Assembly (NCBI GenBank): GCA_027319905.1
Contig: DAHVMJ010000004.1
Location: 1-63,501, forward strand
Reading direction: 5' to 3'
Length of the DNA stretch: 63,501 bases
From: Candidatus Micrarchaeota archaeon
GTDB lineage: Archaea > Micrarchaeota > Micrarchaeia > Micrarchaeales > CABMGC01
Shown: one piece after another, positions 9,535 through 40,931 of the stretch
Position numbering within the stretch: the first letter of the stretch is position 1
How the letters are laid out: each line of letters begins with the position of its first letter
Notes under the pieces: model-generated
The model's input: only the letters and a program-made list of their open reading frames with translations
Databases searched by the model: none
Told to the model about the DNA's origin: nothing
Position numbers and translations under genes: made by a program

Positions 9535-10170
9535 ATGCTGGAAGAGAAGTACCAGGAGTTTGAGAAGTTCATAGACGAGAATAAGAACCAGAGGAAGTTC
9601 GAGCAGAGCGTAGAGCTCGCGATAAACTTCAAGGGCGTGGACTTTTCGAAGCAGGCAAACAGGCTGAACGTTGACGTGCTGCTGCCGAACGGCAGGGGCA
9701 AGACCAACAAACTAGCGCTCTTCGCCACTGACAAGAACTTCGTCTCGGCCGCGAGGGACAAGGGCATAGAGGTGCTGGACGGCAACTCGCTGCCAACGAT
9801 AGCAAGCGACAAGGAGAAGATGAACTCCCTTCTGGGCTACGACCTGCTGGCACAGCCAAACCTGATGCCGAGCATAGCAAAGCAGCTCGGACCGTTTCTC
9901 GGACCAAGGAACAAGATGCCAAAGCCCGTGATGACAGCGCAGGATCTGGGCCGAACGGCAGGAGAGACGAGCAAGCGCATCTCCATAAAGAACAAGGGCA
10001 AGTTCCTGCCCACGGTGCACTGCGTGGTGGGCAGCGAGAAGATGGAGGCGAAGAAGATTTACGAAAACATACAGGAGGTTGTTGGTGACGTGAACAAGGC
10101 AGTAGGCGCGAACAGGATACGCTCAGTGTACGTAAAGCTGACGATGAGCAAACCGCTGAAACTGGTGTGA
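9535..10170 (+). CDS. rpl1: 50S ribosomal protein L1 (uL1)
   Basis: ATG at 9535 preceded by gcaggaggga. Typical L1 sequence (FEQSVELAINFKG, GPRNKMPKP). The ORF-track TTG at 9517 is probably an over-extension. Confidence 0.85.
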   Translation: MLEEKYQEFEKFIDENKNQRKFEQSVELAINFKGVDFSKQANRLNVDVLLPNGRGKTNKLALFATDKNFVSAARDKGIEVLDGNSLPTIASDKEKMNSLLGYDLLAQPNLMPSIAKQLGPFLGPRNKMPKPVMTAQDLGRTAGETSKRISIKNKGKFLPTVHCVVGSEKMEAKKIYENIQEVVGDVNKAVGANRIRSVYVKLTMSKPLKLV

Positions 10171-10172
10171 AC

Positions 10173-11015
10173 ATGACGATGATCAAGGCACAAAAGGTCG
10201 AGTACGTAAAGAAACTGCAGAAGGAGATAGCGAGCTACAAGACCGCTGCGATAATGCCGATCGACGGAGTGCCGGACAGGCTTCTGCAGAAGGTCAGGAA
10301 CGAGCTCAAGCCGGATTCGCACATGATAATAGCCAGGAGATCGTTGCTTTCGAGGGCTGTCGGAGAGGAGAAGCTCAAGCACCTTGGCAAGAGCATGGAG
10401 AGGAACTTTGCGCTCGTGCTCTCGAACAAGGAACCGTTCGAGCTCTACAAGGTGGTACACTCCAGCAGGCTCAGGCTAGGGGCAAAGCCGAACCAGATAG
10501 CGCCGGAGGACATTCGCATAGAGGCGGGAGACACCAACGTTGCTCCAGGGCAGACGGTGACGGAGCTGAAGAGCGCAGGAGTAGACGTGCAGATACAGAA
10601 GGGCAAGGTTGTCATATCCAAGGGCAAGGTGCTTGTAGAGAAAGGCAAGAAGATAAGCGGCGCTGTTGCAAACGCGCTCAAGATACTAGACATAAAACCT
10701 TTCGAGATCTCGCCGAGGCTGAGCGCGGCGCTGTCGGAGAGCCTGCTCTACAGCGATGCGGCGCTCGGCGTAGATGAGGACTTCGTCAGAGACGAGCTGC
10801 TCAGGGATTTCTCCCAGGCATACGCGGTGAGCCTTGAGGCGGGCATAGTCACGCAGTACAATGCAAACGTGTTCGTAGTTCGTGCATACAGAAGCGCGAT
10901 TGCCCTCGGGCTTGAGGCCAAGGTGCCGGAGGACGAGATTGTAAAAATGCTTGTGGCGAACGCCGCAGTGCAGGCGGGCGAACTCGCCAGCAAGACTGGT
11001 GTTGATACTAAGTAG
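10173..11015 (+). CDS. rplP0: 50S ribosomal protein P0 (uL10)
   Basis: Follows L1 with an overlapping stop. KVEYVKKL...[13 protein letters not shown] pattern of archaeal P0. ATG at 10173 or 10179. Confidence 0.85.
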
Positions 11016-11023
11016 GTGAAAAA

Positions 11024-11329
11024 ATGGAGTACATATACGCTGCCCTATTGCTCGACGCAGCCGGAAAGGAAGTCACGGAAGACAGCATAAAGAGTGTTGT
11101 CAAGGCTGCGGGCAAGGAGCCCGATGAGGCAATGGCGAAGTCTGTGGTGAGCGCTCTGAAAGGAGTGAACATAAAGGACGTGATAAAGAACGCACAGACC
11201 ATGCAGGCGGCTGCACCAGCGGCAGCTGCGCCGGCGCAGGCTTCGAAAGCCAAGGAAGAGAAGAGCGAGGCAGAGGAGAAGAAGAGCGAAGAGGAGGCCG
11301 CAAGCGGACTCGCGAGTCTATTCGGCTGA
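11024..11329 (+). CDS. rpl12: 50S ribosomal stalk protein P1 (aL12)
   Basis: [10 protein letters not shown] start, Ala/Glu/Lys-rich hinge, C-terminal GLASLFG. Confidence 0.9.
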
Positions 11330-11464
11330 AACAATGAGCTATGGTGCCAGCAGCTCAGCGCGTGACGCCTAGCGCACGCTGGGACTAAAACGTGACAGAT
11401 AGATGCTGCCCGGAAAAAAAGTATAAAAACATTTTCATGCACAACTGAGGTATAGCTGGTTTGG

Positions 11465-11839
11465 ATGGATGTTTACGTAGAGAAGGAGCACTGCACCGGT
11501 TGCCAGCACTGCAAGGATGTTTGCCCAGTAGCTGTTTTTGAGATGAAAGGGAGAGGCACGCCGGACAACCCAGGCGCCGAAGGGGCAAACGCTGATAGCG
11601 CGCCGCCAGAGCACCAGTGGAAGGGGCAGTCCAACCCAGAAAATGTCCAGAAGTGGAGCAGTGTACAAGACGGGCACAGGCACTTCGCCCAGGATAACAA
11701 CGGCACGAGCGGGGGTCTGTCAGTGGCTGTAAACGGCTCGGCCTGCATACTATGCCAGGCCTGCCTGATAGAGTGCGAGGGCGAGGACATAGTCATAACC
11801 GACGACAGCGGCAACGTCTACAGGTCGATATACAAGTAG
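11465..11839 (+). CDS. 4Fe-4S dicluster ferredoxin-like protein with a long inter-motif insertion
   Basis: CTGCQHCKDVCP and CILCQACLIEC cluster motifs separated by about 60 low-complexity residues. Confidence 0.55.
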   Translation: MDVYVEKEHCTGCQHCKDVCPVAVFEMKGRGTPDNPGAEGANADSAPPEHQWKGQSNPENVQKWSSVQDGHRHFAQDNNGTSGGLSVAVNGSACILCQACLIECEGEDIVITDDSGNVYRSIYK

Positions 11840-11845
11840 CTCAGC

Positions 11846-12610
11846 CTAGTGAAAGGTTGCTGTAAGTGTGCCGGGACCCACGGCGTTGGCCGTGGCGGAT
11901 TGGGTGCTGCCCGAAAGCATGACGTTGGCACTTGCGGTCCATGAGTAGAATGTATTTGATGAAGGGGGAAGCGCGTATACGGAGTAGGTGGAGCCGAGAA
12001 CGAACACAACATTGGCGCCATTCGCATACTGCACTCCGTTAAGCGCTATGTGGCCGTTTGTCGGGCTGGTGAGCAGTTGCACCGTATAGACAAACGATTT
12101 GTAAGGCGAAACCACAGCCACAGCCGTGCCGCTTGTGTTGTACACCTGCGCGGTGCACTTCGAGGTGCAGATCTGATAGCTAAGTGTAAACTTGGGATTT
12201 ACCTGCGTGCCTGCAGAAATCGAGTAGCCTGGCAGCGTGGCGTTGCACGTAATTGAAGAGCCGACGAGGGCGTTTTGCGGGATGCACCTTCCCTTGTAGG
12301 TGGTGTTGGTGTAGAAAGATGGTACAAAGAGGAGTGAGTTGGGCGGGAAATAGAGGGTTGTACCGACGTTGTTCTGAAATATCAACATAAAGTTTGTGGC
12401 CGTGGAGTTGGTGAGCAAAAGTGCCTGGGAACAGGGGAATGAAGGCGAGATGTAACACGACTGGGGGAGGTACGTGGGAGTGCTTTTCGAAGGAAGAGAG
12501 ACCACAGAAAGTATCGCCACAACAAACAGGCCCAGTACGAGGAAAGCCCATGAATATGTGGTAAGGAACTCAACCGCAGATTGCGCCTTTGCCATGGCTA
12601 TACCTTTCAT
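11846..12610 (-). CDS. class-III signal peptide (archaeal type IV pilin-like) secreted protein
   Basis: MKGIAMAKAQSAVEFLTTYSWAFLVLGLFVV has a prepilin-like N-terminus. Start is at 12610 or 12595. The upstream part of the 284-aa ORF overlaps the trm5 3' end. Many N-x-S/T sequons. Confidence 0.5.
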   Translation of the reverse strand: MKGIAMAKAQSAVEFLTTYSWAFLVLGLFVVAILSVVSLPSKSTPTYLPQSCYISPSFPCSQALLLTNSTATNFMLIFQNNVGTTLYFPPNSLLFVPSFYTNTTYKGRCIPQNALVGSSITCNATLPGYSISAGTQVNPKFTLSYQICTSKCTAQVYNTSGTAVAVVSPYKSFVYTVQLLTSPTNGHIALNGVQYANGANVVFVLGSTYSVYALPPSSNTFYSWTASANVMLSGSTQSATANAVGPGTLTATFH

Positions 12611-12629
12611 AAATAGGCTTATAGGTTTT

Positions 12630-13406
12630 TCAATTGACCAAGAGGTCCACCACGAGCTCGATCTCTGTGGCCGAGTAGGGTCTAACCATCCTGTGCCCAA
12701 GCACTCTCGCCTTCCTGCCCTTCCTAGAGAAGAAACCAGTTAGTCTCCTCATCGCCGAGCGCTGCTCGCCTTCCTTGCAGAAGGTATAGTAGTGTATTAC
12801 GCATCCGCGCGAGCACATTTCAAATGCAGATTCTAGGAACTTTGACGAGCCTTTGGGCAGAGGCATCACTATCCTATCTGCAAAACGCGAGTACTTCTTG
12901 GCGAAGGCGTCAACGTTTCCTTGCTCCAAAACGACGTTAGGAGTTTTGTTGAGCCTGGCGTTTTCTCTGGCGTACCTGCACGCTGCTGAGTTCAGCTCTA
13001 TCGCCACAACCGCACTCTTCTTGTGAGTCTTTGCTATCTCGATGGCATAAGGCCCCACGCCTGAAAACATCACGACCACGTGTTCGCCATCCTTCGCCAT
13101 CTCACTAACGCGCTTGCGCTCGTACGCCAGCCTGGTGGAGAAGAAGGTCTTGCGTATGTCAAACCTGAAGACGCAGCCGTTCTCTCTGTAGGTTGCAAGG
13201 TAGTTCCTCCTGCCTGCAACATACACGAATCTTCTCGTTCTGTAAAGGCCCTTGACCGCGCCTCCCTTCCTCAGCACCGTCTCTATGTTCTTGTTCTCCA
13301 GCAGCAATTTCTCTGCCAGCGCTTTCGCCGTGTTCGGGACCGCATCTATGACGACAATGTTCCCATACAGGTCGTATCCGCGCGCTGATCTGGCTGTAAC
13401 CTTCAT
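12630..13406 (-). CDS. trm5: tRNA (guanine37-N1)-methyltransferase Trm5 / Met-10+ family
   Basis: YDLYGNIVVI, FRFDIRKTFFSTRLAYER, VVVMFSGVGPYAI and RIVMPLP blocks typical of Trm5/Taw22. Confidence 0.65.
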   Translation of the reverse strand: MKVTARSARGYDLYGNIVVIDAVPNTAKALAEKLLLENKNIETVLRKGGAVKGLYRTRRFVYVAGRRNYLATYRENGCVFRFDIRKTFFSTRLAYERKRVSEMAKDGEHVVVMFSGVGPYAIEIAKTHKKSAVVAIELNSAACRYARENARLNKTPNVVLEQGNVDAFAKKYSRFADRIVMPLPKGSSKFLESAFEMCSRGCVIHYYTFCKEGEQRSAMRRLTGFFSRKGRKARVLGHRMVRPYSATEIELVVDLLVN

Positions 13407-13522
13407 ACCGACTCACTTCATGGGCAACCTATATAAATTGTTGGCTACTTAATACCATATAATTGCTCTCGAGCAAGCCTTTTTTCAAGATGTTGTAGGC
13501 TTTAGCAGAGCAGAGTGATGCA

Positions 13523-13969
13523 GTGTATTTCATAGTAAGAGTAACGTCGAGCCAGGAACGCATAACAGCAGACATACTCCAGAACAAGATAGAGAAGAGC
13601 ACCATACCCGTGTACGCGATAATACTAGCGGAGGGCATGCGCGGCTACCTCATACTTGAGGCGCAGGACGAGAACGCTGCGAGAGAACTGATACTCGACG
13701 AACCGCACGTTAAGGGCATACTGCCGAAGCCGCTGAGCGAAGACGACCTGAACCGCATGCTTGAGGTAAAGAAGGTCGTGCAGGAGATAAACACGAACGA
13801 CATAATCGAGTTCATGAGCGGCCCCTTCAAGGGATACAAGGCGAAGGTGATCAAGGTTGAGACGGCAAAGGAAGAGATAACCGTCGAGCTAATGGATGTT
13901 GCGGTACCTATACCGGTTACTACTAAAGCCAGCATCGCAAGAGTGGTGCAGAAGGCTGAGAAGGTGTAA
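13523..13969 (+). CDS. spt5: transcription elongation factor Spt5 (NusG)
   Basis: NGN domain (YFIVRVTSSQE...GYLILEA) plus C-terminal KOW (GPFKGYKAKVIKV). Directly precedes L11. Confidence 0.8.
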   Translation: MYFIVRVTSSQERITADILQNKIEKSTIPVYAIILAEGMRGYLILEAQDENAARELILDEPHVKGILPKPLSEDDLNRMLEVKKVVQEINTNDIIEFMSGPFKGYKAKVIKVETAKEEITVELMDVAVPIPVTTKASIARVVQKAEKV

Positions 13970-13971
13970 GC

Positions 13972-14439
13972 ATGGCAGAAGTGACGATAAGCGGATTGAT
14001 AGAAGGCGGCAAGGCAACGAGCGGACCGCCGTTCGGACCTGCATTGGGCCCGCTGGGGGTCAATGTGGCAAAGATAATAGAAGATATAAACAAGCAGACC
14101 GGCGCGTATTCAGGAATAAAGGTCCCGGTAAAGATAATGATCGATCCTGCCACGAAGAACTACAGGGTGGAGGTGGGCTCGCCTCCGAGCAGTGCGTTGA
14201 TACTCAAAGAACTTGGCATACAGAAGGGAGCAAAGACCAAGGAAGAGACCGTGGGCAACGCCACCATAGAGCAGCTTAAGAAGGTGGCAAAGGCGAAGGA
14301 GAAGAGCCTGTACGGCGAATCGCTGAAGGAGAAGGTAATGCAGCTCGCTGGCACATGCAAGAGCATGGGCATAACGGTCGAGGGCATGCCCGCAAGAGAG
14401 GCAATAGCAAAGATCGGGAGCGGAGAACTCAAGGTCTGA
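13972..14439 (+). CDS. rpl11: 50S ribosomal protein L11 (uL11)
   Basis: GGKATSGPPFGPALGPLGVN signature. 155 aa. Confidence 0.9.
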   Translation: MAEVTISGLIEGGKATSGPPFGPALGPLGVNVAKIIEDINKQTGAYSGIKVPVKIMIDPATKNYRVEVGSPPSSALILKELGIQKGAKTKEETVGNATIEQLKKVAKAKEKSLYGESLKEKVMQLAGTCKSMGITVEGMPAREAIAKIGSGELKV

Positions 14440-14923
14440 TTCTGTCTCTGGCAATCTTCCATGAACCCTTGAACCACGGAGCTGCCTTATCTGAATTTGC
14501 TATCTGGTCGACTCTGCGTATTGAATAAAAACTGGCGTAATCGGCCTCGCTCGGATCCAGGGTTATCTTGTCGTCGCTCTTTGCGTAGAAGACAGCCACG
14601 ATTTCGTTCTCGGGGTAATCAAAATGGGTGAACTTGCCGAGATAGCGAACTGGTGCCGTCACTCCCGTCTCCTCCTCCAATTCGCGTTCTGCAGCCTGCT
14701 TATAGGTCTCCCCGAACGTCACGTGAAACGAGGCCGAGCATTCATAGCAGTTCGGAAATGTCTTCTTCTTCTCATTGCGCCACGGAACCAGAATCTTGCC
14801 GTCGCTCCTCACCAGAAACACCACGCCGGAACGGTGCAGGACGCCCTTCTCATGCGCGTTGTCCCTTTCAATGCTGCCCAGAATCCTATCTCTTTTATCA
14901 ACCTTGTACAATAGCTCCGTCAA
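14429..14923 (-). CDS. Nudix hydrolase, IDI-like
   Basis: Nudix box GETYKQAAERELEEETGV. The N-terminal region (RILGSIERDNAHEKGVLHRSGVVFL) parallels the type-1 IPP isomerase layout. Overlaps the IPK stop by 4 nt. Confidence 0.6.
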   Translation of the reverse strand: MTELLYKVDKRDRILGSIERDNAHEKGVLHRSGVVFLVRSDGKILVPWRNEKKKTFPNCYECSASFHVTFGETYKQAAERELEEETGVTAPVRYLGKFTHFDYPENEIVAVFYAKSDDKITLDPSEADYASFYSIRRVDQIANSDKAAPWFKGSWKIARDRIRP

Positions 14924-37287: not shown

Positions 37288-37328
37288 ATTGTCCCCATCT
37301 ATTGTACGCCTAAAAATATTTAAGCTAG

Positions 37329-38453
37329 AAAGATGACTGGGCCCGCCGAGAGCAGCACAGAGGCTCGCAGGCTGTTGGCAGCCTGCTCGCCCGCACCGCA
37401 TCCCACAAGGACAAGCTACTTCTCGCACCCCAGCTTTATCTCACTTTCGACTGCGAGCGAGGGCTTCCCAAGAAGCCCGAAGCGAGCAAGCGCATTGTCG
37501 GGCGGGTCATTGGCTTGGCAAGGCAGGATGGGTCTTTGCCCCTCCATAGCAGCGACATCCGAACACATTTCGAGGTTCTGCCCGTGAGAGCCCACGAAAG
37601 CCACGTAGAGCTGCTGGCAAGCCCAGCGTTCGTTCATCAGCGCATACCAGAACCCGCAACCAAGCCCAAAGACTACATGCGGGAGCAACTACCGCTGATG
37701 GCCAAGTGGGAGATTGAGGAGCTTAGGAGCGAGATCAAGCAGCATTATCTCAGCAGGTTCAAGAGGCCCAGAATCGCCAAGTACGGAACGCTAAACAAGG
37801 GTTTCGAGGAGCAGGAGCTTAGGGTATTCCTAGCGCACATAGACAACGAGAAGCATCGCTTGCTATTCGAGTTTATGGCTAATCTGGGCTTGCGGGTGGG
37901 CGAGGCGGTGAGGGTTAATATCAAGGACATAAAGCCAGAGAGCAGGGAGCTTATCGTTTATACTGAGAAAGCTAGGCAGCCCGACAGCCTGCGCATACCT
38001 CTCCCGCTATTCAAGGAGACGCTAGACTTCATACATGCGCATACGCAAGAGATAGAGCAGCACGAGGGCTATATCTTCTTCAAGGACTTCAAGTACAGCA
38101 AGCATGGTTGCAACCACCTCGACCTTAACTATGTGCGAAACATCTTCAGGGAGTACATAACTGACGCTGGGCTCGATGAGACCTATGATGTGAGCGAAGA
38201 GCGCAATAGCAGAACGCCAAGACGCTTGCATCGCCTAACCACGCATTCGCTAAGACATTATGCTATAACCCGCTTTGCGAGGAGCACGAACGGCAATGTG
38301 GTGCTCACAGCACACTTCGCTCGGCACAGGAATCCGAGCACTACGAACACTTACATCGCATTGGACAAGAAAGAGCTTTATGATGTGATTGATGCGATTT
38401 CTGTGAATGAAGCGATATTGCTTAAAAAGAAAATTAGCGAAGAAAAAATCTAA
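37329..38453 (+). CDS. tyrosine recombinase (integrase), int(C) portion. Frame open from the att core, first ATG at 37677.
   Basis: Catalytic signatures LGLRVGEAVRV (Arg), HSLRHYAIT (HxxR), FARHRN (His) and TNTYI (Tyr). There is no stop codon in this frame between 37329 and 38453. Confidence 0.75.
   Translation, partial: KDDWARREQHRGSQAVGSLLARTASHKDKLLLAPQLYLTFDCERGLPKKPEASKRIVGRVIGLARQDGSLPLHSSDIRTHFEVLPVRAHESHVELLASPAFVHQRIPEPATKPKDYMREQLPLMAKWEIEELRSEIKQHYLSRFKRPRIAKYGTLNKGFEEQELRVFLAHIDNEKHRLLFEFMANLGLRVGEAVRVNIKDIKPESRELIVYTEKARQPDSLRIPLPLFKETLDFIHAHTQEIEQHEGYIFFKDFKYSKHGCNHLDLNYVRNIFREYITDAGLDETYDVSEERNSRTPRRLHRLTTHSLRHYAITRFARSTNGNVVLTAHFARHRNPSTTNTYIALDKKELYDVIDAISVNEAILLKKKISEEKI
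37335..37352. repeat. attL core gactgggcccgccgagag
   Basis: Identical to 40858-40875. Equals the displaced copy of the tRNA-Val 3' end plus 3 nt. Confidence 0.8.
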
Positions 38454-38458
38454 GATAA

Positions 38459-39619
38459 TCAAGCAGTTATTTCACCAAGAATGTGAGTTTTCAATTTCTT
38501 CTTGGCATCGAGATAATCGGCTACTGTTGAGCCCTTTAAGAATTTGCCAGATGCCTTGAGTTCCCCATCGCTAAGGAAAACCTCGTGTATCCGTGAATAA
38601 TCTATGGCTTTAGATATAAGCAGTTTATTTTTCATTGCTTCTTTTGAATTTATTTCTTTGACGAGCGTATCAGAATAAAAGTCATTATGAATTTTCTCTA
38701 TCTTTCCTTCGGCTAATATCTCTGCAAGTGGTTTAACAGTTAAATCTTTGCGGAAGAATTTAATTCCATCCCACTCTCTTGGCCCTCCGCCTCTTACTCT
38801 TACTCTATAAGAGTACAAATCTCCGAAATTAAATTGTGAGTCGTGTATTCTAGAAACGGTATCATCATATGCTCGTTTTTCTATATTTATTATGTTGAAT
38901 AGAACATCTCCAGATGCTAGCTTACTAAGAATGTTATAGTTGTGTATCGCATCTGCGGGTGGCTTATGTCTGAAACTTATGATTGGTATTGTACTCTTCC
39001 CATAAGACAAGAGTTTATTCAAAAGCAATTCAAAGACTTTTGAGTCTGCATATCCCATATCTAAAACAATATTGAGTTGCTTGCCGTTATCCGCCTCTCT
39101 TTTAATTACGCTTTCTATTTCATTAATATTCGCCGTGGGTGTGGCACCGAGCGGGACTGTGACGGGTAGAGTAAGAATATCAACAGGTAGCTGGTTTTGA
39201 ACTGCTATCAACGTATCAAGATATTTTTTAAAAAGTTCCTTGTTTTTGTATAATTCAGAATAATCAACCATTCTGACGGATGGGATAAACATTTTTAGCG
39301 TGGCGTGCTGGGCGCTTCTGAAAAATGTACTCGCCGTTCTAATTATATTTGATGGGGCTGTGTTATTTCGCACAAAGATCGAAATATCATCTATGTTCAT
39401 TGGCTGCTCATATACGAACACAGGAGACTCGCTAAATAGAGAACGTATTTCTGGAAAGTTGTTTTTTGCGCGCAAATCAGTTTGGGTAATGGCTCTTATA
39501 GGGGTACGAAAACTTGTTTTGTTATCGATTTTAAGAATTCGTGAGCCTATCTTTAACTTTGGCTCTTTTAGTTTGGAATCAAATTCGTATATGTTTTTTA
39601 ACTTTATTTTTATGCTCAT
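38459..39619 (-). CDS. cargo ORF A, unknown function (386 aa from ATG 39619)
   Basis: Its ATG overlaps the ORF B stop (ATGA). AT-rich. No family recognised with confidence. Confidence 0.55.
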   Translation of the reverse strand: MSIKIKLKNIYEFDSKLKEPKLKIGSRILKIDNKTSFRTPIRAITQTDLRAKNNFPEIRSLFSESPVFVYEQPMNIDDISIFVRNNTAPSNIIRTASTFFRSAQHATLKMFIPSVRMVDYSELYKNKELFKKYLDTLIAVQNQLPVDILTLPVTVPLGATPTANINEIESVIKREADNGKQLNIVLDMGYADSKVFELLLNKLLSYGKSTIPIISFRHKPPADAIHNYNILSKLASGDVLFNIINIEKRAYDDTVSRIHDSQFNFGDLYSYRVRVRGGGPREWDGIKFFRKDLTVKPLAEILAEGKIEKIHNDFYSDTLVKEINSKEAMKNKLLISKAIDYSRIHEVFLSDGELKASGKFLKGSTVADYLDAKKKLKTHILGEITA

Positions 39620-40200
39620 GCTCCGTGTCGACCCCAAGTAACATCCATGTACAACTTCTTCACCGTTGATTTTGTAGTATATTTTCTGTATTCGGGTTTG
39701 CTATAAATATACCTTAATAGCCCAGCAGGAGAGAATTCGTCAAGTTCTTTTCTGGCCATTGTGATAGTCTTGGCCAGTTTCGAGTTGCTTTTTCTTAATT
39801 TGTTGAAAATATTCCTTCCTTTACTAGTGAGATAGTAGGCCTGATTATTGGAATTCTTTCTACCTCTGTAACCTAAATAGCCACTTATAATTAATGCATT
39901 AGTGAGTTCGGCGAGTTTGAAACTATATGGCCCTAAACGATATGGGACAAACCGCAGGTCTTCTAATTTTCTTTCATAATCCAGATATTCGTTGGCAACG
40001 AGAAATGCTTCCTTTTGTAGCCTTATGTTTCCATTGAGCTCTTTCTCGCTTGCTCCTATAAGCAGCAGTATCTGTTGCAAGGCATTCAGTTGATTGTGGT
40101 CTACTTTTTTAGAATGTTTCAAACTATCCGCATATGTTCTAATTATTATCTCTGCCTCTGCCCAATCCAATACTCTCGTTCCATCGGAATAGATTTTCAT
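39616..40200 (-). CDS. cargo ORF B, unknown function (194 aa), possible C-terminal wHTH
   Basis: Its ATG overlaps the ORF C stop (ATGA). YYLTSKGRNIFNKL resembles a winged-helix wing region. Confidence 0.55.
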   Translation of the reverse strand: MKIYSDGTRVLDWAEAEIIIRTYADSLKHSKKVDHNQLNALQQILLLIGASEKELNGNIRLQKEAFLVANEYLDYERKLEDLRFVPYRLGPYSFKLAELTNALIISGYLGYRGRKNSNNQAYYLTSKGRNIFNKLRKSNSKLAKTITMARKELDEFSPAGLLRYIYSKPEYRKYTTKSTVKKLYMDVTWGRHGA

Positions 40201-40706
40201 TTGATTACCTCAAAACTTTTCAATATGAACACTACTCCTCTTTTCCTATCATTCCCTTTTTCCACATGAAGCTTAATTTTCAGCTTTTTAAGGCGTATAG
40301 CCGTGCTTTTGCCAGATTTAAGTTTTGCAAGCATTCTATTTATCTTTGTACCCTGCGAATTGATGCCTTTTAGTAAAGGGCTGAAATTAGCATAGCCTGT
40401 TGCTGCCCAAGACCCAGCGAATATATCAGAGGGTAGAAAATATCGGTCAAGTACTTCAAATACGCCCCCGTTATCAAAGACGTAGCCACAACCAAGACAT
40501 ACGTAACGTGTCTGAAAGCGAGATTTAATCGAAGAATTAGAAGATGTCGCAGACGATACCCCCGCTGAGAATAAGGGTATGCCGCCTTTCGCTTTCGAAG
40601 CAGAACTTTTCGCAGAACCTGTGTCAATTACGCTGCCTTTTGATAATTGAATATTATTAGTACCACACTTAGGACAATATCGAAAAAATACTCCGTTTCT
40701 CCTCAT
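40197..40706 (-). CDS. cargo ORF C, zinc-ribbon protein of unknown function (169 aa)
   Basis: CPKCG ... CLGCG pairs are separated by a Ser-rich low-complexity linker. It is the first gene of the operon. Confidence 0.5.
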   Translation of the reverse strand: MRRNGVFFRYCPKCGTNNIQLSKGSVIDTGSAKSSASKAKGGIPLFSAGVSSATSSNSSIKSRFQTRYVCLGCGYVFDNGGVFEVLDRYFLPSDIFAGSWAATGYANFSPLLKGINSQGTKINRMLAKLKSGKSTAIRLKKLKIKLHVEKGNDRKRGVVFILKSFEVIK

Positions 40707-40751
40707 CCGCTCGCTTTCTTTGAAACTTATATTCTAATCGCATCCTTGCTA

Positions 40752-40761
40752 TTTAAATACT
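40752..40761. promoter_or_regulatory. palindromic TATA-like box tatttaaata between the divergent cargo operon and int(N)
   Basis: About 42 nt upstream of ATG 40798. A second A/T box (aaacttatattct, 40726-40738) lies about 26 nt upstream of the ORF C ATG. Confidence 0.35.
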
Positions 40762-40797
40762 CTCGCAGAGAGCTAACAGCACTTTTCGGTTGTGTTT

Positions 40798-40875
40798 ATG
40801 CCCCAAAAAAATTCTAATTTTCTAGCGCCGAACTCCTATTCTGTCGTCGATAATGACGACTGGGCCCGCCGAGAG
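40798..40875 (+). CDS. int(N) fragment: 20 codons (MPQKNSNFLAPNSYSVVDND) reading in phase into attR
   Basis: ATG at 40798. It reads the 18-bp core as D-W-A-R-R-E, the same phase as int(C) at attL. Confidence 0.45.
40858..40875. repeat. attR core gactgggcccgccgagag
   Basis: Identical to 37335-37352. Positions 40861-40875 are the 3' terminal 15 nt of tRNA-Val. Confidence 0.8.
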
Positions 40876-40931
40876 TCGAACTCGGCTCTCCACTCTGTGA
40901 AAGTGGCGTCTTACCGATGGACCACGAGCCC
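40861..40931 (-). tRNA. tRNA-Val(CAC)
   Basis: Hand fold: GGGCTCG/CGGGCCC acceptor, anticodon arm CCACT-TTCACAG-AGTGG, T arm CCGAG-TTCGACT-CTCGG, discriminator A. No encoded CCA. Confidence 0.85.

Follow-up and report, generated by a model that had tools for sequence, protein, structure and literature searches.

An integrative element of 3,523 bp lies within the 3′ end of a tRNA-Val(CAC) gene in the 63,501-nucleotide stretch of Candidatus Micrarchaeota archaeon DNA analysed here (GenBank assembly GCA_027319905.1, contig DAHVMJ010000004.1, positions 1 to 63,501), which is called the window in its full length. The element is bounded by an 18-bp direct repeat, GACTGGGCCCGCCGAGAG, which is present exactly twice, at 37335-37352 and 40858-40875, and which is clearly beyond chance (two matches in 0 of 100 dinucleotide-preserving shuffles). 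The tRNA gene, which is the integration target, was placed at 40861-40931 on the minus strand by ARAGORN and Rfam. The right copy of the repeat, the core of the right attachment site (attR), comprises the last 15 nt of the tRNA and 3 nt beyond, and the left copy, the attL core, is the reverse complement of the tRNA 3′ end. The tRNA is intact in the integrated state, being restored by the core copy of the element. An initial annotation, made from the letters of the window alone, had already named this repeat and this target, and the coordinates of both are exact. At the attL end lies the integrase gene (int), whose conserved coding region at 37584-38456 on the plus strand encodes 289 aa from a GTG at 37584 and belongs to the tyrosine recombinases of PF00589.

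The int reading frame extends beyond this coding region and through the attachment site (att). It has no stop from 37329 to the stop codon at 38454-38456, and its first ATG, at 37677, is located 114 codons from the start of the attL core. The segment from the core to the internal start (37353-37583, plus strand), referred to here as the N-terminal extension, consists of 77 codons that are open in the int frame, with 61% GC and no TATA-like motif. At the other end of the element, a palindromic TATA-box-like sequence, tatttaaata (40750-40759), is found 39 nt upstream of an ATG at 40798, which opens 20 codons (MPQKNSNFLAPNSYSVVDND; Int(N), 40798-40857, plus strand) that run into the attR core in the phase of int. 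Both copies of the core are read as GAC-TGG-GCC-CGC-CGA-GAG, or DWARRE, and 40798-40875 joined to 37353-38453 forms a 392-aa open reading frame (ORF) without a stop. The initial annotation had described the open frame with its 114 upstream codons, the 20 codons at the far end, the common DWARRE phase and the 392-codon fusion, all of which were seen again in our analysis.

We propose, with a probability of about 0.6, that the int reading frame and its transcription unit span the attachment site of the free element (attP) and are split by integration, in a topology like that of SSV. This reading is adopted because of the phase statistics, the TATA box and ATG across att, the promoterless spacers between att and int, and the fused members of the wider integrase family. 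In the free circle, a TATA promoter and an ATG would lie on one side of attP and the catalytic part of int on the other, and the 18-bp core would be read in frame as DWARRE to give one ORF of 392 codons, which would be translated as a whole. When this core recombines with its identical copy in the tRNA gene, the promoter, the ATG and the 20 codons of Int(N) would be left at the tRNA-proximal end, while int(C) (37353-38453) would end up 3.5 kb away at the opposite end, and int would be silenced. The predicted circular junction reads ...GATAATGAC followed by the core and then CAGCACAGAGG, and the predicted empty site reads ...GAAAGAT, the core and TCGAACTCGG.

The ends of the element are conserved in relatives. 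In a genome scan, two contigs gave tblastn alignments that begin at query residue 21/22, where the core starts. The closer of them carries the label Candidatus Marsarchaeota (L002) and the next one Micrarchaeota (L001), and one integrase homologue is named Micrarchaeaceae; the current name of Micrarchaeota is Microcaldota, a member of the kingdom Nanobdellati (equivalent to DPANN). L002 has syntenic host genes and the same core in the same tRNA-Val(CAC), an open N-terminal extension and the Int(N) ORF MPRKHSDFPAPNSHSVVGNN-DWARRE, with no indels relative to the window in either segment. Its integrase, core, N-terminal extension and Int(N) end are 86-94% identical to those of the window, and its 4.5-kb element (10001-14573) carries an unrelated cargo of membrane proteins; the conserved ends thus exchange their cargo.

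Further members of the clade are found at other targets. These are L085/L086 and its sister L093 in tRNA-Val(GAC), with a 13-14-bp repeat and an element of ~1.9 kb, L087/L088 in tRNA-Val(GAC), with a 17-bp repeat and 2.0 kb, and L091 in tRNA-Ile(GAT), with a 15-bp repeat and 3.2 kb. In L085/L093, L087 and L091 the int frame has no stop from the attL core onward, and a TTTAAATA-type box and an ATG precede an ORF of 21-22 codons that enters attR in the matching phase, where TGG-GCC-CGN is read as W-A-R. The Int(N) ORFs of the relatives, MAEKAAVSRILNPHAADDKTS-WARG, MAKKASDSRILNPDFVVVNMR-WARGE, MAAKKAAIPVIPNPAPTDDKYQ-WARGE and MNSKSPSSPILNPNPTEDKTE-WARGD, end in ...DDKxx-W-A-R. L001, in an intron-bearing tRNA-Ser(GGA), has MSQNTPLFPAPNSYTIDDKYT-WARRD in the same attL phase, with one stop in the spacer. 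The layout described for the window is accordingly repeated in independent relatives in tRNA-Val(GAC), tRNA-Ile(GAT) and tRNA-Ser(GGA). Across the clade, the ATG lies 20-22 codons before the TGG in all nine lineages, and a TATA-like box (TTTAAATA) lies 41-46 nt upstream of that ATG, again in 9/9. The att-to-int spacers of the nine lineages contain no TATA-like motif save one TTATAT, ~50 nt before the start in L092. It could be deduced from the TATA box and ATG across att that the promoter and first start of int lie on the other side of att from the enzyme part.

The spacers fall into two classes, one GC-rich (0.57-0.69) and stop-poor, and the other AT-richer with many stops. In the GC-rich class, the TGG of the core is in the int frame in five of six lineages (window, L085, L087, L091 and L001, but not L084), for which p is ~0.02 against an expectation of 1/3; in the AT-richer class it is out of phase in 3/3. 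A frame that is both open and in phase was found in four of eight lineages, compared with an empirical null of ~0.145 (p ~0.02). The other two frames served as this empirical null, and a mononucleotide-shuffle null for open frames was dropped, as the spacers are stop-poor throughout. In the seven spacers of the window, L001, L084, L085, L087, L091 and L093, which have 57-69% GC, stop codons are depleted relative to mononucleotide shuffles in the three sense frames and partly in antisense too.

Several of these observations weigh against a split reading frame. The spacer of the window contains 0, 1 and 0 stops in its three sense frames, and its open upstream frame alone is not beyond chance; with so few stops in any frame of the spacers, openness by itself says little. 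There are nine in-frame stops in L010; L005 combines a frameshift in Int(N) with an out-of-phase spacer that has three stops; L092 is out of phase with one stop and its own ATG after that stop; and the spacer of L084 is open, yet one base out of phase. All four retain Int(N)-like ends. Such relatives would be understandable under a conventional type II layout of the lambda or pNOB8 kind, in which an integrase of 289 aa (from GTG 37584) or 258 aa (from ATG 37677) stays intact and attP is part of a long, untranslated 5′ leader or of an arm region. The TATA box and ATG would then be a promoter with a short upstream ORF, its continuity with int would be tolerated or fortuitous in GC-rich lineages, and only the promoter would be separated. 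The stop-poor spacers, the closed out-of-phase spacers of L010, L005 and L092 with the TATA and ATG end kept, and the ATG right past the last stop in L001 (after the Shine-Dalgarno (SD) sequence GGTGA) and L092 favour this layout. It is opposed by the phase matches in 5/6 GC-rich lineages and by the lack of TATA-like motifs in the spacers apart from that of L092. In addition, an upstream in-phase ATG without an intervening stop would lead to the long protein being made anyway in the window, L085/L093, L087 and L091, and the supposed start is GTG in the window and ATA in L084. On balance, we regard the type II layout as rather unlikely.

The split frame is further argued for by the wider integrase family, for which 80 metagenomic loci were fetched. 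The more distant relative L017 (VFSW01248248.1, 1-1773) has, in order, a methyltransferase gene, a TATA-like box, the SD sequence AGGTGA, an ATG (533), nine codons, a 53-nt block that equals the 3′ two-thirds of tRNA-Arg(GCG) with no tRNA 5′ part, and int, and the segment from the ATG is one ORF of 334 aa. L020 (9839-10783) is its integrated counterpart with a complete tRNA-Arg(GCG), and L017 looks like a joined, unintegrated attP form. In L058, L062 and L075, for which both ends are on one contig, a perfect SD sequence, GAGGTGA, and an ATG open ORFs of 39-50 codons, which reach the second repeat only in the phase matching int(C). Because of the joined form in L017 and the in-phase Int(N) of the other three, the family contains real members in which att lies inside the int ORF, and a start codon across att in these four distant relatives is difficult to reconcile with a type II layout. 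Of the 80 loci, 26 have a complete sense-orientation tRNA directly before int. In 25 of them no stop separates the int frame from the tRNA, compared with 10 and 2 for the other two frames; they represent 16 different tRNA targets, and 18 of the loci have no ATG in the spacer. Taken by itself, this openness might be due to start codons placed where the tRNA ends, an explanation opposed by the joined form of L017 and by the in-phase ORFs of L058, L062 and L075.

Annotation of this family is affected at the same border. Database calls begin inside the tRNA for P0025-P0027, P0030, P0034, P0046, P0047, P0088 and P0115, and N-termini such as MREVAGSNPAES and RGVAGANPAES are translated T-arms, so that public annotations of these integrases have spurious starts. 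Many metagenome contigs also terminate at the 5′ end of int, either inside it or a few bases short of it (L018, L022, L034, L042, L043 and L045), as would result from assembly breaks at polymorphic integration junctions.

The enzyme itself is a tyrosine recombinase of the Xer-like type. The catalytic domain (Pfam PF00589, 5e-14) occupies residues 178-366 of the 392-aa fusion, and in an alignment of 44 sequences the catalytic R207, K232, H324, H351 and Y360 (fusion numbering) are invariant and R327 is at least 90% conserved. Pfam gives only PF00589; PF16795 (Phage_integr_3), the family of SSV integrases, is not matched even at E≤10. In a profile search of the PDB, the best solved sequence relatives are XerA 4a8e and 5hxy (E 3e-7), and SSV1 Int was not found. 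In Foldseek searches with an AlphaFold2 model, the best fold matches are XerH, IntI4, XerA, Cre and lambda Int, and SSV1 Int is absent from the top 50. The score for the NCBIfam model XerA_Arch (NF040815), 54 bits, is far below its cut-off of 220 bits. The catalytic domain is predicted with a local confidence score (pLDDT) above 90, and confident structure begins just before the MREQL motif, with two helices followed by the catalytic domain. A comparison of the int core of the window with that of L002 gives 83 differences, distributed as 14/8/61 over the three codon positions, with 57 synonymous and 10 non-synonymous codons, which is the pattern expected of strong purifying selection.

The segments upstream of this core behave differently, and they provide points against a split coding sequence. 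Residues 12-93 after the core have pLDDT below 50 and are predicted to be disordered, in a model based on a 49-sequence alignment that is shallow there. Between the window and L002, the 231-nt N-terminal extension has 24 differences (7/10/7 by codon position; 2 synonymous and 15 non-synonymous codons), and Int(N) has seven (4/3/0), all non-synonymous; over seven lineages, the variability of Int(N) by codon position is 0.50/0.40/0.38, the third position not being the highest. Divergence of the N-terminal extension is 10.4%, compared with 24.7% at the third positions of the int core, and the extension seems to be constrained as DNA and not at the amino-acid level, with the qualification that codon-position and dN/dS-type tests cannot distinguish between non-coding DNA and a linker free of constraint. 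In nearly all members of the clade, an SD-like GAGGT or GGTGGT stands 3-10 nt before the conserved ATG, and in the window GAGGT (37572-37576, plus strand) lies 7 nt before the GTG that occupies the position of this conserved internal start, which is ATA in L084. Many homologues are called to start at the position of 37584; among library proteins, alignment never begins earlier than query residue 76, and a full-length called protein was not found for this element or its clade. These data, together with the many family members of 254-263 aa that start a few residues before the LP motif, are also what a type II layout would lead one to expect: an SD-like motif and a start codon conserved at the MR position, protein-level conservation and confident structure that begin only there or later, and upstream segments that evolve as constrained DNA unlike coding sequence.

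They can be accommodated by the split frame that we favour if the part lost on integration is a minor one. The split-off part would consist of the promoter, the first start codon and a probably dispensable, disordered extension, the conserved enzyme staying whole; on the protein, about 105 residues at the N-terminus are probably dispensable and disordered. The internal SD sequence and GTG/ATG (37584) would stay with int(C), and the integrated copy may encode a complete enzyme minus its promoter. That int(C) alone would be inactive, and the gene killed by the split, is opposed indirectly by the conserved folded part and by the SD-like motif and GTG/ATG kept in int(C). The idea of the initial annotation that a functional enzyme is cut in two is correspondingly weakened, as Int(N) and the N-terminal extension show no codon periodicity, are predicted to be disordered and are followed by an SD-led internal start. 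Homologues that uniformly start near MREQL, with unrelated sequence upstream, had been named there as the observation that would speak against a split; many do start at that position or ~30 aa upstream, though not uniformly, and three relatives have closed out-of-phase spacers.

The same comparison bears on an antisense ORF at 37416-37688, which encodes 90 aa from a TTG start and has codon boundaries in common with the int frame. The initial annotation had pointed out this ORF, which does exist in the int codon phase, as a gene of which the open int-frame region might be a mere shadow. The common codon boundaries and a similar antisense ORF in L002 agree with this explanation. Between the window and L002, however, the ORF shows no codon-periodic constraint, with 3 synonymous and 14 non-synonymous codons. 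About 100 nt of it lie within the conserved int coding region, stops interrupt the antisense frames of relatives, and its TTG start is accompanied by no family match. A real antisense gene was rejected on the absence of periodic constraint, and we consider it extremely improbable.

Searches for the free or empty forms of the element gave negative results. The Int(N)-core pattern and the attL or joined-junction sequence were not found in IMG/VR scans, and the joined junction of the window element is not present in any fetched locus, nor was an empty site or a circular junction obtained for this element or its close clade, which weighs against the split frame. A second assembly (L089/L094) holds the same integrated copy at the same site, so both assemblies with the host region carry the element. 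All this would fit a fixed, decaying relic, whose in-phase ORFs are leftovers or coincidence, as would the visible decay of relatives, namely the Int(N) frameshift in L005 and the stops in L001 and L092. Such a relic is nonetheless very unlikely, given the purifying selection on the int core, the conservation of all six catalytic residues and the perfect repeats. Moreover, the window and L002 carry different cargo between conserved ends, and this implies recent activity.

The constraint on DNA around the core may reflect integrase binding. The motif YCGAACNC occurs within Int(N) (40828-40835, as YCGAACYC) and about 20 nt upstream of the internal start (CCGAACAC, 37559-37566, plus strand), and in relatives a further copy directly precedes the TATA box. 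The motif matches exactly the antisense T-loop abutting the core in the tRNA, that is, in the chromosomal site attB (plus-strand T-loop TCGAACTC, 40876-40883, in the window), so that a tRNA motif is repeated within the element. The apparent peptide motifs PN(S/P) in Int(N) and IRT before the internal start are one DNA motif, CGAAC, read in two frames, which is a further point against a coding function of these segments; a motif read in different frames at different sites is conserved as DNA. The copies are probably integrase or arm-type binding sites, and the core region would then double as DNA, with YCGAACNC copies and hairpins that probably bind the integrase.

Two hairpins are located in the N-terminal extension. 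The first is an inverted repeat at 37362-37391, GGCTCGCAGGCTG-ttgg-CAGCCTGCTCGCC, whose counterpart in L001, GTGCGCTC-ttgg-GAGCGCAC (10030-10049), has an equal offset and the same loop with a different yet complementary stem, a compensatory change. The second is perfect, GGGCTTC-ccaa-GAAGCCC at 37461-37478, within a block identical in L002. These local hairpins are possible protein-binding palindromes. A structured RNA gene in the N-terminal extension was considered and rejected: Rfam gives only the tRNA, and the whole extension folds no better than shuffles (z -0.46). A D-D-K motif (GACGACAAA) is also observed close to the tRNA-derived core, at a distance of a few codons, in elements of either orientation, after the core in sense-tRNA elements (xFDDKxGF) and before it in the clade of the window (DDKxx-WAR).

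The cargo of the window element consists of three minus-strand ORFs spanning 38459-40706, with a GC content of about 37%, compared with 50-60% for int and about 52% for the flanks. The ORF at 38459-39637 encodes 392 aa (386 aa as called in the second assembly), and the one at 40197-40706 encodes 169 aa with Zn-ribbon-like CxxC motifs and weak matches only; no family was found for either in our searches. The ORF of 194 aa between them (39616-40200) matches PHROG 24871 at 4e-10 and the PADLOC candidate defence family PDC-M19A at 1e-11, and has a weak DarG-like match. The cargo may thus be a defence or toxin-antitoxin-like cassette. The box at 40750-40759 could be a promoter also for the divergent 169-aa ORF. 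On the host side, directly left of attL, the sequence is AT-rich with a TATA-like stretch, aaaatatttaag, at 37312-37325, which shows no conservation in L002. This stretch probably serves a divergent F420-oxidoreductase gene, and it could drive read-through into int(C).

The smallest elements of the clade, ~1.9-2.0 kb long (L085 9949-11905, L087 9732-11795 and L093 5572-7434), contain only the integrase and one small antisense ORF, and are found in tRNA-Val(GAC) beside the same host genes (Lactamase_B, NFACT_N and PcrB) in different metagenome-assembled genomes (MAGs). Extra integrase genes or fragments and att-like pieces are seen directly beside attL (L087 8788-9264, L088 6091-7224, L090 262-310 and 3234-3493), which suggests tandem or nested integrations at one tRNA. 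In L090 (P0002), att-like fragments form a complex array, to which a sense T-arm fragment ~70 nt before int belongs.

Self-splitting integrases are regarded as an archaeal curiosity of single origin (PMC8371274). If our reading is true, an unrelated Xer-like family has the same topology, and the arrangement is convergent and more widespread. The family is hosted by uncultivated archaea with small genomes, with elements down to ~2 kb and att cores of 12-18 bp. Its states appear graded, from an ORF fused through att, and a fused ORF with an internal SD-led restart, to fully separate genes. We suggest, tentatively and somewhat short of calling it probable, that att inside int arose a second time, independently of the PF16795 lineage, in an Xer-like PF00589 family widespread in Micrarchaeota-type and allied uncultivated archaea; that the graded states would represent a path from conventional to 'suicidal' integrases; that the internal start would rescue the integrated copy; and that the antisense-T-loop motif would be recognised on both attB and the attP arms. 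The coexistence of fused, restart-capable and unfused members makes the origin and persistence of 'suicidal' genes testable, as well as the view of splitting as an expression switch, by which the promoter is severed, rather than as gene destruction. Furthermore, gene callers use internal or spurious starts in this family, some inside tRNA sequence, with the consequence of systematic errors in the borders of elements and the lengths of integrases in MAGs.

The SSV-type (type I, 'suicidal') archaeal integrases were reportedly the subject of work by She et al. in 2001-2004. What defines type I integrases is the position of attP within int, so that integration divides the gene into int(N) and int(C) (Badel et al. 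2020, PMC7253208; PMC8371274). According to Badel, Da Cunha & Oberto (2021), the SSV, pTN3-like and pT26-2-like families all belong to PF16795 and superfamily 25_02, for which a single origin was proposed; they are known mostly from hyperthermophiles, their att sizes are 40-50 bp, and DPANN or Micrarchaeota are unmentioned in that review (PMC8371274). A search of the available literature since 2020 on 'suicidal integrase' found no paper on DPANN.

With the type II integrases of pNOB8 and lambda, the window integrase has in common PF00589 with the full R-K-H-R-H-Y set, a tRNA 3′ end as target, an int gene at the extreme end of the element by att, core-flanking repeats that resemble arm sites, and an enzyme part that is intact after integration. 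It differs from them in the promoter and in-phase ATG across att, with none between att and int, and in a frame that is uninterrupted through the core in the window and four other lineages. XerA (4a8e from P. abyssi and 5hxy from T. acidophilum) is the best solved sequence relative and among the best structural matches. The window enzyme is, however, not a chromosome-dimer resolvase: it resides in a repeat-bounded, low-GC-cargo element in a tRNA gene, and only two helices, not a full core-binding domain, precede its catalytic domain. Among archaeal elements, the thaumarchaeal cryptic element NitEve-E3, for which Krupovic et al. (2019) described an SSV1-like split integrase (PMC6563490), is likewise small, cryptic and integrated, lacks viral hallmark genes and has an integrase that is split on integration. 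Its integrase is SSV1-like, whereas that of the window is unrelated to SSV1 Int by sequence.

The closest parallel in layout is with the SSV, pTN3 and pT26-2 integrases. The window shares with these an attP in the int frame, a tRNA 3′ target, int(N) and int(C) beside opposite att copies with the catalytic domain in int(C), an archaeal host, and related elements that share their ends and differ in cargo. In contrast, it has no PF16795, and its nearest sequences and folds are XerA, XerH and IntI. The identity block measures 18 bp for the window element and 12-17 bp for the relatives of its clade, where the SSV-type families have 40-50 bp (the distant L017/L020 has 53 bp), Int(N) has just 20 codons plus the core, and the core is read antisense to the tRNA. 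The split-off part and about 80 codons past the core are without amino-acid constraint and predicted to be disordered, and an SD-led start is left in int(C), so that the integrated copy may not be 'suicidal' at all. Of the SSV1-type hallmark claimed in the initial annotation, the topology holds in view of the layout of relatives and the joined form of L017, and membership in the SSV family does not, as PF16795 is unmatched and the enzyme is Xer-like. Collectively, the sequence comparisons place the window integrase as SSV-like in its topology and not as a member of the SSV family.

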